NCBI GenBank assembly: GCA_963726745.1
Contig: CAVSDR010000002.1
Location: 96,001 to 160,000, forward strand
Origin: an uncultured Verrucomicrobiae bacterium
GTDB lineage: Bacteria; Verrucomicrobiota; Verrucomicrobiia; Chthoniobacterales; UBA10450
DNA length: 64,000 nucleotides
Direction: 5' to 3'
Below the pieces are notes generated by a model that was not told the origin of the DNA, made no database searches, and saw only the letters and a program-made list of their open reading frames with translations. How positions within the stretch are numbered: the stretch's first letter is position 1; each line of letters starts with the position of its first letter. Of this stretch, positions 18,432 through 25,760 are shown in pieces. The position numbers and the translations under genes were made by a program.

Positions 18432-20034
18432 ATGCTCCTCGACCAGATCAAACGCCGCCGCACCTTCGCGATCATCTCGCACCCGGATGCCGGCAAAACC
18501 ACCCTCACGGAGAAGCTCCTGCTTTACGGCGGCGCGGTGCAGCTGGCCGGCTCGGTGACCGCGCGGAAGAAGCAGCGCGCGACCACTTCCGACTGGATGG
18601 AGCTGGAGAAGCAGCGCGGCATTTCCGTGAGCTCGACCGTGCTGCAATTCGAGTATCGCGATTGCGTGGTCAACCTCCTGGACACGCCTGGCCACAAGGA
18701 TTTCTCCGAGGACACCTACCGCGTGCTCACCGCGGTCGATGCCGCGATCATGGTGATCGACGCCGGCAAAGGCATCGAGTCGCAAACGCGGAAGCTCTTC
18801 GAAGTTTGCCGGCGCCGCGGGGTGCCGATCTTCACGTTCATGAACAAGCTCGATCGCCCCGCGCGCGATCCGCTGGCCTTGATCGATGAACTCGAGAGCG
18901 TCCTCGGGATTGGCGCCAGCGCGATGAACTGGCCGCTCGGCCAGGGGCCGCAATTTGCCGGCGTCTACGATCGCCTCCGCCGCGAGGTCCACGTCTTCGA
19001 GCGCTCGGCGCACGGGACCTATCGCGCGCCGGTTTCTGTCGGCGGGATGGACGACCAGTTTGTGAAGGATCGCGTGGATGAAGCGTCACGTCTGCTCGCG
19101 GTCGAGGAGATGGCGATGCTCGATGGCGCGGGCCATGAGTTCGATCCGGCAGCGCTGGCGCGCGGCGAGCTGACGCCGGTTTTCTTCGGGAGCGCGGCGA
19201 ACAACTTCGGCGTGCAGCTGCTGCTCGACGCGTTTCTCGACTACGCGCCGCCGCCGCAGCCGCGGCCTTCGCGCGGCGTGATGGTCGAACCCGGCGACCG
19301 ACAGCTTTTCCGGCTTCGTTTTCAAGATCCAGGCGAACATGGACCCGCGGCATCGCGACCGGATTTGCTTCATCCGGATCGTCTCCGGCCGCTTCGAGCG
19401 CGACATGCAGGTGACCTTAACGCGCACAGGCAAGATCGTGCGGCTCTCGAATTCGCAGAAGCTCTTTGCGCGTGAGCGCGAGACGGTGGACGAGGCTTTC
19501 GCCGGTGACGTCATCGGCATCGTGGGCAATCACGGCTTCCAAATAGGCGACACTTTGGCCGCCGATCCGACGCTCGCGTTTGACGAGATTCCGCGCTTCC
19601 CGCCGGAGTGTTTCGCCTACCTGCGAAACACGAACACGGCGAAGTCGAAGCGCTTCCGCGAAGGCCTCGAGCAGCTTCTCCAGGAAGGCGTGGTCCAGAG
19701 TTTTTCGTTCCCGCATGCGGCGCAGCGTGTGCCGTTGCTGGGGGCGGTCGGGCCGTTGCAATTCGAGGTGGTGCAGGCGCGGCTCGAGGGCGAATACGGC
19801 GCGGAGGCGAAGGTGGAAACCGCGCCCTGGCAGATCGTGCGCTGGCTGCGCCGGAAAGACGATCAGCCGGTCGCCAACGGGATCGCGCTGCCGACGGGCA
19901 CGACCCTCGCGGTCGATGAAAACAATCGCCCGGTGGTGTTGTTCCCTGATTCCTGGCCGCTGCGCTTTTTCCCGGAGCGCAACCCGGAGGTTGAGCTCTC
20001 CGAGTTGCCCTTCGGCGCAGTTGCCGCGGAATAA
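18432..20034 (+). CDS. prfC: Peptide chain release factor 3 (frameshift near 19300)
   Basis: RRRTFAIISHPDAGKTTLTEKLL, LLDTPGH; C-half NMDPRHRDR..GAVGPLQFEV. Confidence 0.95.
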
Positions 20035-20055: not shown

Positions 20056-22650
20056 CTAATTCGCGTCCGCTTCCGTTTCGACTTCCGCCTCGTCGATCAC
20101 GTCGCTCACCACCGGCGCGATCGCCTGGAGCTTCTCGCCCGATTTCAGGTCCATCAATTTTACGCCCATGGTGTTCCGGCCGACGGCGCGGATCTCCTTG
20201 ATCCGCGTGCGCACCATCTGGCCCTTGGTCGTAATCAGCATGAGCTCGTCGGCGTCGGTCACGGTGAGAGCGCCGACGACTTTGCCGGTCTTGTCGCCCG
20301 TTTTCATCGTGATGATGCCTTTGCCTCCGCGGGACTGCGTGCGGTAATCGTCGAACGGCGTCCGTTTGCCGATGCCGTTCTCGCCGGCCACGAGCAACAT
20401 GGCATCCGTGTTCACGATCGCACTCGCGACCACGTGATCGCCTTTCACCGGGCGAATGCCCCAGACGCCCACGGTGTTGCGCCCCTGGTCGCGCAGCTGA
20501 TCCTCATGGAAACGCAGGCTCATGCCGTTGCGCGTGATCAGGACGATCTGGTCGTCGCCGGTGGTTAGTTGCGCGTCGATCAGGCAATCGTCTTCCTCGA
20601 TCTGGATGGCAATGATGCCGCCTTTCCGGACGTTGGAGTAATCGGAAAGGTTCGACTTCTTCACGATGCCGGTGCGGGTGGCGAAGACGATGTGCAGGTT
20701 TTCGTCCCAAGTAGTGTCAACCGCGTTCGCGCCGATGCCGGTGCGCTTCGACTGGATGCGGATGGTCGCGGCGATTTTCTCGTCGCTCCGCAGTTCGAGC
20801 AGGTTCGCGATCGAGCGACCTTTGGCGGCGCGGCCCATCTCCGGAATCTCGTAGACTTTCTCCACGTAGCAGCGGCCGCTCTCGGTGAAGAACATCAGGT
20901 AATCGTGCGTCGTCGCGGTGAAGAGATGCTCCACGAAGTCGCCCTCGTCCTCGTCGCGCGCGCCTTCGCGGGCGACCATGCCGATGACGCCTTTGCCGCC
21001 GCGACGCTGCGCGCGGAAGGCGCTCACCGCGGTCCGCTTGATGAAGCCGCCGTGGGTAATGGTGATGATCGTCCCTTCGTTGGCGATCAAGTCTTCCATG
21101 TTGATCTCGCCCTCGTCGGGGACAAGCTGCGTCAGGCGCGGGCCGGCGTACTTCGTCTGGATTTCGCGCAGCTCGGCCTTGATGATCTCGAGCACGCGCG
21201 ACTCCTTCGCGAGGATGTCGCGCAGGTCCTTGATCCGCTCGATCAACTCGTTGTACTCCGCCTGGAGCTTCTCGCGCTCGAGACCGGTCAGCTGGTAAAG
21301 GCGGAGATCGAGGATCTGATTCGCCTGGTGTTCGCTGAAGGCGTAACGGCCGTCGACCAGGCGCGCTTCGTTGCGGATCAGGATGCCGATCTGTTCGACC
21401 TGTTTGCGGGTGAACTCGAAGGCTAAAAGTTTGACCCGCGCTTCTTCGCGGTTGGCCGAGTTGCGGATGATGCGGATGAACTCGTCGAGATTAGCCAGCG
21501 CGATCAGGTAACCTTCGAGGGTCTCGGCGCGGTCCTCGGCTTTGCGCAATTCGAAGCGCGTCCGGCGCAGCACGACCTCGCGGCGATGCTCGATGTAAGC
21601 CGTGTTCGCGTCCTTCAGGTTGAGCAGCTTCGGCCGGCCGTGATCGATCGCGAGCATCGAGGCGGCGAACGAACTCTCGAGCGCGGTGTGCTTGTAAAGA
21701 TTGTTGATGACGACCTTGGGATTGCCGTCGCGCTTGAGCTCGATGACCACGCGCGTGTTCTCATCGGACTCGTCGCGGATCGCGCTGATATCAGTCAGCA
21801 CTTTGTCGTTCACCAGCGAGGCGATCCGTTCCACGAGAGTGGCGCGGTTCACGTTGTAGGGAATCTCGGTGATCACGATCTGCTCGCGATTGCCCTTGAG
21901 CTCCTCGACGCCGGCTTTGCCGCGCACTTTCATGCTCCCGCGGCCGGTCTCGAGGTATTGCTTGATCCCGCTCAACCCGCAAAGGGCGCAGCCGGTCGGA
22001 AAGTCCGGGCCCTTCACGTATTTCATCAGGCCTTCGACCGTGATGTCAGGATCGTCGATCTGCGCGCAGATGCCGTCGATGACTTCGCCGAGGTTATGCG
22101 GCGGGATGTTCGTGGCCATGCCGACGGCGATGCCGGTGCCGCCGTTAACCAGCAGGTTCGGGAAAGCGCTCGGGAAGACCGTCGGCTCGGTGCGGGTCTC
22201 GTCGTAGTTCGGGACGAAGTCGACCGTGTCCTTGTCCATGTCGACCATGAGCGCGGCGCCCAGGTGCGTCATGCGCGCCTCGGTGTAACGCATCGCGGCC
22301 GGCGGATCGCCTTCCACGGAACCAAAGTTGCCCTGGCCGTCGACCAGGGTCTCGCGCATGGCCCAGTCCTGCGCCATGTGCACCAGCGTCGGGTAAATTA
22401 CCGCCTCGCCGTGCGGGTGATAGTTACCGCTGGTGTCGCCGCAAATCTTGGCGCACTTACGATGCTGCCGGTTCGGGAAGAGCGAGAGGTCGTGCATCGC
22501 AAACAGGATGCGACGCTGCGAAGGCTTGAGCCCGTCGCGCGCATCGGGGAGCGCGCGCGAGATGATGACCGACATGGAGTAATCGAGGAATGACCTCGAG
22601 ACTTCTTCGGCGACGTTGATGGGCTCGATCTTTTCGTTGGGGTTATACAC
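20056..22650 (-). CDS. gyrA: DNA gyrase subunit A
   Basis: RALPDARDGLKP, YHPHGE, AAMRYTEAR, GyrA-box QRRGGKG. Confidence 0.97.
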   Translation of the reverse strand: MYNPNEKIEPINVAEEVSRSFLDYSMSVIISRALPDARDGLKPSQRRILFAMHDLSLFPNRQHRKCAKICGDTSGNYHPHGEAVIYPTLVHMAQDWAMRETLVDGQGNFGSVEGDPPAAMRYTEARMTHLGAALMVDMDKDTVDFVPNYDETRTEPTVFPSAFPNLLVNGGTGIAVGMATNIPPHNLGEVIDGICAQIDDPDITVEGLMKYVKGPDFPTGCALCGLSGIKQYLETGRGSMKVRGKAGVEELKGNREQIVITEIPYNVNRATLVERIASLVNDKVLTDISAIRDESDENTRVVIELKRDGNPKVVINNLYKHTALESSFAASMLAIDHGRPKLLNLKDANTAYIEHRREVVLRRTRFELRKAEDRAETLEGYLIALANLDEFIRIIRNSANREEARVKLLAFEFTRKQVEQIGILIRNEARLVDGRYAFSEHQANQILDLRLYQLTGLEREKLQAEYNELIERIKDLRDILAKESRVLEIIKAELREIQTKYAGPRLTQLVPDEGEINMEDLIANEGTIITITHGGFIKRTAVSAFRAQRRGGKGVIGMVAREGARDEDEGDFVEHLFTATTHDYLMFFTESGRCYVEKVYEIPEMGRAAKGRSIANLLELRSDEKIAATIRIQSKRTGIGANAVDTTWDENLHIVFATRTGIVKKSNLSDYSNVRKGGIIAIQIEEDDCLIDAQLTTGDDQIVLITRNGMSLRFHEDQLRDQGRNTVGVWGIRPVKGDHVVASAIVNTDAMLLVAGENGIGKRTPFDDYRTQSRGGKGIITMKTGDKTGKVVGALTVTDADELMLITTKGQMVRTRIKEIRAVGRNTMGVKLMDLKSGEKLQAIAPVVSDVIDEAEVETEADAN

Positions 22651-22662
22651 GGCGGGTTCGAA

Positions 22663-23130
22663 CTAGACAGGATTTACAGGATTGTTTGGATGAACAGGAT
22701 GATGCAGATCGACTCCCTCGGGAGCAGACGTTTGCCGGCGATGCTTGCGTTTGAACTGCAGGCTGGGAGTTCCGAAATTCAAGAGGAGACCGATGTCGTG
22801 CTGAGTCGCGGTCAGGTAGTTCACTAGCTGCACTTCATCGGCTTTGCTTAAGGCACTCGCTGCTTTCAGTTCGCAAAGGATGAAGCCATTCACGACGACG
22901 TCCGCGATGAAGTCGCCCACAATGACGTGCTCGTATTTGACCGTAATCCGTTTTTCCAGTTCGACGGAAAGGCCAGCGCGCCGGAGCTCAAAGGCGAACG
23001 CGTTTCGATAGACGGATTCAAGGAACCCCGAGCCTAGTCCCCGGTGCACCTTCATGGCGCATCCGATGATCCTTTCGGTGAGCGCGTGATCTTCAGTGAA
23101 ATCCAATCCAGTAAATCCTTTGAATCCCAT
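22663..23130 (-). CDS. GxxExxY protein (PD-(D/E)xK nuclease-like fold)
   Basis: IIGCAMKVHRGLGSGFLESVY, F.ADVVV...CELKA, QLVNYL, GLLLNFG. Confidence 0.92.
   Translation of the reverse strand: MGFKGFTGLDFTEDHALTERIIGCAMKVHRGLGSGFLESVYRNAFAFELRRAGLSVELEKRITVKYEHVIVGDFIADVVVNGFILCELKAASALSKADEVQLVNYLTATQHDIGLLLNFGTPSLQFKRKHRRQTSAPEGVDLHHPVHPNNPVNPV
22666..22701 (+). repeat. Tandem 9-bp repeats, left arm: GACAGGATT TACAGGATT GTTTGGATG AACAGGATG
   Basis: GGAT at an exact 9-bp period; encodes the HPVHPNNPVNPV C-terminus of the GxxExxY protein. Confidence 0.85.
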
Positions 23131-23140
23131 CAATCCTGTC
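23105..23140 (-). repeat. Tandem 9-bp repeats, right arm (minus strand): GACAGGATT GATGGGATT CAAAGGATT TACTGGATT
   Basis: GGATT at an exact 9-bp period, inverted relative to the left arm; overlaps the GxxExxY start (MGFKGFTGL). Confidence 0.85.
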
Positions 23141-23147
23141 TAGTTCG

Positions 23148-25760
<2,613 letters not shown>

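Follow-up and report, generated by a model that had tools for sequence, protein, structure and literature searches.

Between gyrB and gyrA in the genome of an uncultured Verrucomicrobiae bacterium from soil lies a 489-bp unit in which two inverted arms enclose a single gene for a GxxExxY protein. The unit is part of the 64,000-nt stretch analyzed here (contig CAVSDR010000002.1, positions 96,001 to 160,000), to which we refer as the window. We propose, with belief and doubt in about equal measure, that this cassette is the gene-bearing master copy of a palindrome family, resembling the doublets of repetitive extragenic palindromes (REPs) known as REPINs and their REP-associated tyrosine transposases (RAYTs) but driven by a PD-(D/E)xK nuclease. 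Taken together, the findings point to a form of selfish DNA that moves slowly and has apparently not been described. The GxxExxY gene is bracketed by inverted arrays of an 8- to 10-nt word particular to its clade. Each unit is placed sense-oriented at an operon gene's stop codon, with its own stop codon at a normal spacer length from the next gene. The cassette stays for a long time at one junction under purifying selection, with patchy loss or decay, and another allele sometimes takes its place. Copies of these arms that lack the gene fill numerous further stop-codon junctions, which most relatives have empty.

The original prediction described a single-open reading frame (ORF) unit of 489 bp bounded by a perfect 16-bp inverted repeat, and this is what we find (22659–22674 on the plus strand, 23132–23147 on the minus strand); matches to the 16-mer number two in the window, against none in any of 100 shuffles of it. 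Complementarity of the arms reaches 42 nt at 76%, and each arm repeats an RGAT-N5 unit every 9 nt, with five units at 22670–22709 and four at 23106–23136. The layout, read in the direction of transcription, is as follows.

23148–25730, minus strand: gyrB (NF011501 and TIGR01059, above cut-off), its stop codon adjoining the cassette
23106–23147, minus strand: 5′ (left) arm, the perfect 16-bp end at 23132–23147 plus four 9-nt RGAT units
23133 (TTG) and 23130 (ATG), minus strand: alternative ORF starts
23116–23121, minus strand: AAAGGA, a Shine-Dalgarno-like word within an arm unit, 9 nt before the TTG, putative ribosome-binding site
22663–23106, minus strand: GxxExxY/PDDEXK_3 ORF, 147 aa from the conserved TTG, crossing the right arm with its stop inside it
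23008–23028, minus strand: GxxExxY motif (G23, E26 and Y29 of alignment A1, invariant in 40 sequences)
22864–22902, minus strand: PD-(D/E)xK catalytic set (among 40 sequences, D65 and K77 never vary and E75 is present in at least 90%)
22659–22709, minus strand: 3′ (right) arm, five 9-nt units plus the perfect 16-bp end at 22659–22674, containing the ORF stop
22651–22658, minus strand: 8-nt spacer ahead of gyrA
20056–22650, minus strand: gyrA (NF004043 and TIGR01063, above cut-off)

The unit directly follows the gyrB TAG, which ends at 23148, and is separated by 8 nt from the gyrA GTG at 22650, as had been predicted; the ORF, judged AT-rich by eye, has a GC content of 0.53 against 0.62 for gyrA and 0.60 for gyrB, and a third-position GC content of 0.61 against 0.86 and 0.84. 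The letters GTCTAG, previously taken to suggest a target duplication, are present at both junctions, but their agreement is a coincidence because the left copy is the end of gyrB and the right copy is the arm's own end; the gyrB stop is TGA in the other six carriers of the genus, versus TAG in the window. A target-site duplication was also rejected across 73 short and 32 long units with the window's arm, in which recurrent direct repeats at the ends are only palindromic arm words (TA, CTAG) or sparse 2-mers. The ORF stops 12 nt from the gyrA start, similar to the tight 13- to 18-nt empty spacers of relatives, and this distance is 6–19 nt in 17 of 20 gyr-linked copies. An in-frame TTG stands at the inner end of the left arm in all 21 gyr-linked copies; in 15 it is the nearest start and in 6 it precedes the nearest start by 6 nt, and RGGA at the window's spacing precedes the start in 12 of the 21 when the nearest start is called. 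The cassette was searched for promoter and terminator consensus sequences and none was found, nor did an Rfam search of the unit return a match at E up to 1. We infer that the gene is probably expressed from the host gyrBA transcript.

The ORF belongs to TIGR04256 (GxxExxY protein; E = 1e-36, 125.6 bits against a cut-off of 35) and PF13366 (PDDEXK_3; E = 5e-35, 120.8 bits against a cut-off of 22), and G23, E26, Y29, D65 and K77 are invariant among 40 aligned family members. An alignment-based structural model, with a predicted local distance difference test score (pLDDT) of 87, was used in preference to a single-sequence prediction (pLDDT 41), and its predicted fold is PD-(D/E)xK, a restriction-endonuclease core with D...ExK. 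The best structural match to the model is the Cas4 protein SSO0001 (Z 8.6, root-mean-square deviation [rmsd] 7.2, 108 residues aligned), followed by AF1548 (Z 8.5, rmsd 2.3, 85 aligned) and Hjc (Z 6.8, rmsd 3.2, 86 aligned), with a best Foldseek E of 1.3e-3; these middling scores for a modeled structure assign a fold to the protein, not a function. A sequence search for a solved relative found none. Purifying selection on the ORF is indicated by ratios of nonsynonymous to synonymous differences (pN/pS) of 0.11–0.28 in 21 pairs among seven carriers of the genus, one frameshifted copy counting with its first 92 codons only. The GxxExxY/PDDEXK_3 family is large and is tabulated in the accessible portion of PMC3424549 as of unknown function and with multiple transfers; one paper, in its available text, mentions a GxxExxY protein as a neighbor of a reverse transcriptase.

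Other GxxExxY loci have inverted arms as well, as had been anticipated, with scores that exceed all 100 shuffles: 37 of 38 in the genus, 58 of 78 metagenome or viral loci (84 were fetched and 6 at contig edges left out), and 55 of 67 from other genomes of the phylum. The viral collection holds only four loci encoding the family (L405–L408), all with arm scores above the shuffles, one marginally, and phage carriage looks rare. The arm motif tracks the protein clade, with 7 label changes on a 33-row tree against a shuffled mean of 20.4 and 0 of 200 shuffles as low; five broken copies were left out of this tree, and two rows mislabeled by pattern fit their clades on inspection. Arm families A, B and C each keep their own protein clade across at least two different junctions. 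The prediction that cassettes lie between co-oriented operon genes was borne out, the left arm being no more than 15 nt from the upstream stop in 38 of the 44 co-oriented cases among 50 loci. Counting 70 loci in the genus, six of them from unpublished genomes and with gene names read from Pfam matches, 63 occur at 12 recurring junctions with one arm type per junction: gyrB-gyrA (8), nuoF-nuoG (13), uvrD-malQ (13), uraH-allantoicase (5), pilT-pilT (5), metK-ahcY (4), an ABC permease pair (4), cvpA-gatB (3) and four junctions with 2 each. The window genome itself has further GxxExxY cassettes, with different arm words, at metK-ahcY (G000:C5:210430-210885) and nuoF-nuoG (G000:C6:373345-373800). 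The closest 11 metagenome homologs are all at gyrB-gyrA, and more distant homologs with the same arm lie elsewhere, for instance between adenylosuccinate lyase and an aldo/keto reductase and between an aconitase C-terminal domain and an HMGL-like gene. Relocation of the cassette therefore happens but is rare, since the same arms sit at other junctions and yet paralogs within a genome share at most 84% amino acid identity (seven multicopy genomes).

A search of related genomes for cassette-less sites, which the original prediction called for, found such sites. The gyrB-gyrA junction could be resolved in 27 of 34 genomes of the genus, of which 7 carry the cassette (one frameshifted), 1 a decayed chimeric copy, 13 are empty (from an 8-nt overlap up to 72 nt; one is the unpublished G001) and 6 hold other cargo, namely two DUF2442/DUF4160 pairs, a ParE pair, a Stf0 sulfotransferase, a four-helix-bundle gene and a membrane protein. 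Among 14 genomes of other families, four have a Phd/PIN pair at this junction and ten have spacers of 17–152 nt. Named records with the same cassette at gyrB-gyrA are labeled Chthoniobacterales or Verrucomicrobia. Cargo without arms is also concentrated at this junction (ParE, DUF2442/DUF4160 and Phd/PIN pairs and Stf0; L009, L025, L028, L062, L064, L067–L070), with inverted-repeat (IR) scores of 10–15 for the toxin-antitoxin and Stf0 genes. ParE-family proteins are gyrase poisons, and the presence of such a gene inside the gyrase operon is curious. Four-helix-bundle genes (PF05635) with inverted arms of their own occupy gyrB-gyrA in two relatives (L019, L066); to our knowledge, four-helix-bundle proteins are not nucleases and have no known catalytic site. 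At another locus (L093), a PF05635 gene directly follows a GxxExxY cassette, and the decayed copy in G014 (L008) begins with an A-type arm, continues with an arm of the four-helix-bundle type and ends in a broken GxxExxY remnant, which could be one cassette replacing another or an assembly artifact in an error-rich genome. Four sequencing runs contained contigs of relatives, at 80% likeness, two of which skip the unit; these probably come from other species and hence do not speak for excision.

The cassette has long resided at its junction. Synonymous sites are saturated in all 21 carrier pairs of the genus, on which ground recent horizontal spread was rejected. Synonymous divergence (pS) is 0.755 in the cassette versus 0.56 in gyrB and 0.535 in rpoB, a difference that may reflect weaker codon bias only and that we do not count as evidence of transfer. 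Over 20 gyr-linked copies (two more were dropped for short cover, and four named-record loci that look like duplicates were excluded), distances between cassettes are correlated with those between the gyr genes (Mantel r 0.59, 0 of 2000 permutations), so that the cassette for the most part goes along with its flanks. Of the proposal that the unit is a minimal mobile element, the discrete unit, the empty sites and the arms elsewhere stand, but recent mobility of the gene itself is not supported. The carriers are spread over the gyr tree (8 carriers) and the rpoB tree (7 carriers) alike, each with 7 changes, equal to the shuffles (means 7.2 and 6.2, respectively). With many unresolved forks, and with G033 and G014 on long branches because their assemblies are frameshifted, the trees cannot separate one gain and many losses from repeated gains.

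Replacement of one allele by another is suggested at two places. Between loci L330 and L331, 61 of 1539 sites differ in the flanks versus 88 of 340 within one stretch (p 6e-32); this divergent stretch, with a putatively foreign tract of 320 nt in L330, begins in the left arm and ends inside the ORF, wholly within the cassette. L332 contains a truncated L331-like cassette, followed by ~58 nt duplicated from the end of its own gyrB and by a complete allele of a different kind; in both cases the replacement starts in the left arm. Such swaps would also be expected of a free-standing homing endonuclease, which would cut the cassette-less allele or a site in a flanking gene and have recombination copy the cassette in, the arms being secondary. 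The tie of each clade to conserved junctions and the scattered presence on the two trees agree with homing, and an Hjc-like PD-(D/E)xK homing enzyme exists in I-Ssp6803I, as the available text of PMC3384342 describes. We nevertheless consider homing improbable. The empty gyrB-gyrA spacers, compared among relatives, have no sequence in common, and co-conversion of the flanks is not clear (pS among carriers is 0.56 versus 0.61 for the last 40 gyrB codons and, for the first 40 codons of gyrA, 0.40 versus 0.41); a target inside gyrB or gyrA may exist. Distant hosts yielded no near-identical cassette, the L330/L331 tract stays inside the cassette, the protein follows the arm motif rather than the target gene, and homing leaves the gene-less palindromes unexplained.

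These gene-less palindromes are the second component of the proposed family. The window genome has four of them, 83–125 nt long and with the cassette's arm, together with one lone arm. The lone arm, which has no gene, is at uvrD-malQ (G000:C6:1022845-1022936), where 13 relatives have a cassette; the start of contig C1 (380–560) nearly repeats this region. An arm-seeded scan of genome contigs gave at least 118 stretches under ten phylum labels, and those listed divide into 68 short palindromes without a gene, 7 GxxExxY cassettes that all lie at gyrB, 39 stretches lacking a partner arm and 4 longer units with only nested palindromes or no recognizable gene. Among these listed matches, A arms surround no other gene: 7 of the 11 units longer than 200 bp hold GxxExxY and 4 no recognizable gene. 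Some palindromes are nested inside others (L117, L126, L148, L491). The gene-less copies are 60–120 bp long and lie beside stop codons, 30 of 31 no more than 27 nt away, a count made without a control and with arms that themselves contain stop codons. At ridA-pyrE, 20 of 29 resolved junctions are no longer than 14 nt and the filled ones hold several unrelated palindrome families, and frr is likewise mixed; the fillings at these two places (L264–L323) comprise 9-mer, 7-mer and 6-mer arrays and GTAG-type and CGTC-like REPs. Because orthologous junctions are mostly empty or filled by different families, the sequences point to independent gains of gene-less palindromes beside stop codons. The spacers of 31 gene-less copies are no more alike within than between genomes and are unique except in two neighboring pairs.

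For two of three arm types compared, arms are more numerous in genomes with the cognate gene. After subtraction of each cassette's own arms, the median count of A arms is 15 in the 8 genomes with an A gene versus 3.5 in the 26 without (p 0.011), and that of F arms is 13 in 13 genomes with an F gene versus 2 in 21 without (p 0.002), both uncorrected for kinship; leaving out three unpublished genomes gives p 0.008 for A and 0.005 for F. Cross tests of A and F arm counts against the noncognate gene were null.

Whether the arms act as DNA or RNA bears on the further alternative that the unit is an mRNA intervening sequence, in which the arms would pair in the gyrBA transcript, RNase III would excise the unit or the stem would bridge gyrB to gyrA, and selection would keep the pairing. 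The arms do pair in the predicted mRNA fold (z −2.26, with a calculated duplex of −44.8 kcal/mol), the cassette search gave no promoter or terminator consensus, and ORF-bearing intervening sequences (IVSs) of 23S rRNA are cut out by RNase III according to the accessible text of PMC4990558, the IVS protein family having the same layout at gyrB-gyrA. In a test for strand bias, G.U pairs are not in excess over A.C on the transcribed strand, with 44 versus 51 in 50 cassettes of the genus, 55 versus 77 in 59 metagenome or viral cassettes and 37 versus 41 in the 47 oriented among 91 gene-less copies, and the loop-out idea of the original prediction receives no support from this test. Within a gene-less copy, the inner 26 nt of one arm are no closer a match to the partner arm than to arms taken from other copies (97 of 500 shuffles scored as high); arms of cassettes do match each other better than between copies, which lineage variants can explain. 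The ORF, moreover, continues through the right arm and evolves under purifying selection. We regard the RNA alternative as quite improbable, although RNA processing of the arms may occur as a side effect. The conserved feature is the repeated word, which is what one would expect if proteins bind these sites on DNA.

The mechanism that we propose under the master-copy reading begins with expression of the gene from the host operon transcript via the AGGA and TTG of the arm. The protein would recognize its own arm word on DNA, as a hairpin, a cruciform or a duplex array, and would nick or cut there. Host repair after the cut would seed gene-less palindromes at new junctions, start allele swaps at the arm and rarely move the whole cassette. 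Whether recognition and cutting of the arm word by the nuclease, with host repair making palindromes, swaps and rare relocations, is how the family works seems to us evenly poised between right and wrong.

Several points weigh against the master-copy reading, and some favor instead a passenger role, in which something else (host recombination, replication slippage or an unlinked enzyme) moves or creates the arms and GxxExxY is captured cargo kept for a host or addiction function. The four-helix-bundle cassettes are the main unexplained fact: since these genes share the layout, with arms of their own, at the same junction, the ORF need not be the motor, and relatives hold ParE, DUF2442/DUF4160, Phd/PIN and Stf0 genes there as well. 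Arm specificity is incomplete because D arms are weakly linked to the D gene (p 0.08; 0.055 without the unpublished genomes) and strongly to the A gene (p 0.001), and all of the arm-count p values overstate the associations because related genomes are not independent. Genomes rich in palindromes can lack the cognate gene; in four with 20–41 A-arm matches no A-clade gene was found (G002, G033, G011, which is 71% complete, and G001, which is unpublished). Strong purifying selection on the ORF would likewise suit a function for the host. Simple linkage would likewise make arms and clades congruent, the gene-less spacers, unique apart from two pairs, show no sign of a recent copy-paste burst, and within-genome paralogs reach only 84% amino acid identity. 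Some gene-less copies may be deletion relics, as the lone arm at uvrD-malQ could be, and the apparent swapping of alleles from the left arm is drawn from two assembled metagenome contigs, in which chimeras are possible. The passenger role is nonetheless unlikely in our estimation: the toxin-antitoxin and Stf0 cargo at gyrB-gyrA is arm-less, A arms surround no gene but GxxExxY among the listed matches, none of 30 Y1 genes carries any of six arm motifs, and the A-A and F-F associations hold where the A and F cross tests are null.

If the master-copy reading is correct, it would explain abundant unannotated intergenic palindromes in Verrucomicrobiota, Acidobacteriota, Planctomycetota and other phyla, and would illustrate a way for selfish DNA to reside within essential operons, namely by providing stop codons, a ribosome-binding site and gene spacing of normal length. 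The enzyme would then be a very small sequence-directed nuclease with many natural specificities, of possible practical use. The GxxExxY family also gains a specific, testable substrate in its own arm word, which differs by clade so that other clades provide built-in controls. Extended to the family as a whole, the proposal would be that GxxExxY proteins are the enzymes of a new minimal class of selfish elements, ~120- to 150-aa nucleases that read arrays of an 8- to 10-nt word specific to their clade, write short palindromes beside stop codons throughout the chromosome and renew or relocate their own cassette by cutting at the arm, constituting a second, HUH-independent origin of REPINs in many phyla; this broader claim is tentative, and we lean somewhat against it. 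No description of an arms-plus-GxxExxY unit was found in the literature searched, subscription papers being largely outside the search and supplements not covered.

A RAYT was considered as the mover of the arms and rejected, 0 of 30 loci with a Y1 transposase (PF01797) carrying any of six arm motifs. The only Y1 match of the window genome lies in frame inside carB, the gene for the large subunit of carbamoyl-phosphate synthase (L324:1285-3231; G000:C3, ~995.5–997.4 kb, minus strand); it is flanked by small palindromes and has the NHVH motif, as in RAYT class 3 in the available text of PMC6006769. Many Y1 matches of the genus are in open frames of 700–1400 aa, which suggests frequent in-frame insertion of Y1 domains into housekeeping proteins. 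Elsewhere in the window, 18432–20034 on the plus strand holds a gene that we take to resemble release factor 3, split over two frames; the split probably reflects sequencing indels, since rpoB and carB are also split in the assembly.

Comparison with known systems shows partial likenesses on several sides. Insertion sequences with miniature inverted-repeat transposable elements have terminal inverted repeats around one ORF plus short nonautonomous forms, and the window family shares both, but it has no transposase match, target duplication or near-identical copies, and its spacers are unique. The PD-(D/E)xK homing endonuclease I-Ssp6803I (accessible text of PMC3384342) and free-standing phage homing endonuclease genes resemble the window family in a small Hjc-like nuclease, in site fidelity in conserved genes and in cycles of gain, decay and loss, whereas the window unit has no intron or intein, shows no conserved empty target in the spacers compared, and does have inverted repeat arms and gene-less derivatives. 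The IVSs of 23S rRNA with an S23p or four-helix-bundle ORF (PF05635) are, in the available portions of PMC4990558 and 10.1101/2024.02.27.582315, patchy ~0.45-kb ORF-bearing units with complementary ends in a highly transcribed operon, with ORF-less forms, and PF05635 genes with their own arms reach gyrB-gyrA in two relatives; the window unit differs in its place in a protein-coding operon rather than in rRNA, in its nuclease-fold ORF under purifying selection and in giving no sign of selection for RNA pairing.

The closest likeness we draw is to REPIN-RAYT systems, in which, according to the accessible text of 10.1101/2021.07.10.451892, a non-jumping gene is accompanied by dispersed palindromes. 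The window family differs in its enzyme, PD-(D/E)xK (PF13366) and not HUH/Y1, and in its arm, a tandem array of an 8- to 10-nt word rather than a short hairpin with a GTAG or CGTC foot; its gene lies inside one arm pair, within operons, its copies number tens and not hundreds, and several clades with different arms coexist per genome. Shared with REPINs, as described in the available parts of 10.1101/2021.07.10.451892, PMC3116915 and PMC3733652, are extragenic palindromes of ~100 bp with conserved arms and variable spacers, and gene-less inverted doublets of this kind make up 68 of the at least 118 stretches. Both systems also have arms that often supply the neighboring stop codon. In REPIN-RAYT systems, as far as the same accessible texts go, the gene is moreover fixed at one site and mostly inherited with the host, and copy number is linked to its presence; the window family may resemble them in these respects, with fixed junctions and correlated distances on the one side and patchy presence and allele swaps on the other, and with arm counts that go with the cognate gene for A and F but weakly for D, whose arms also go with the A gene.
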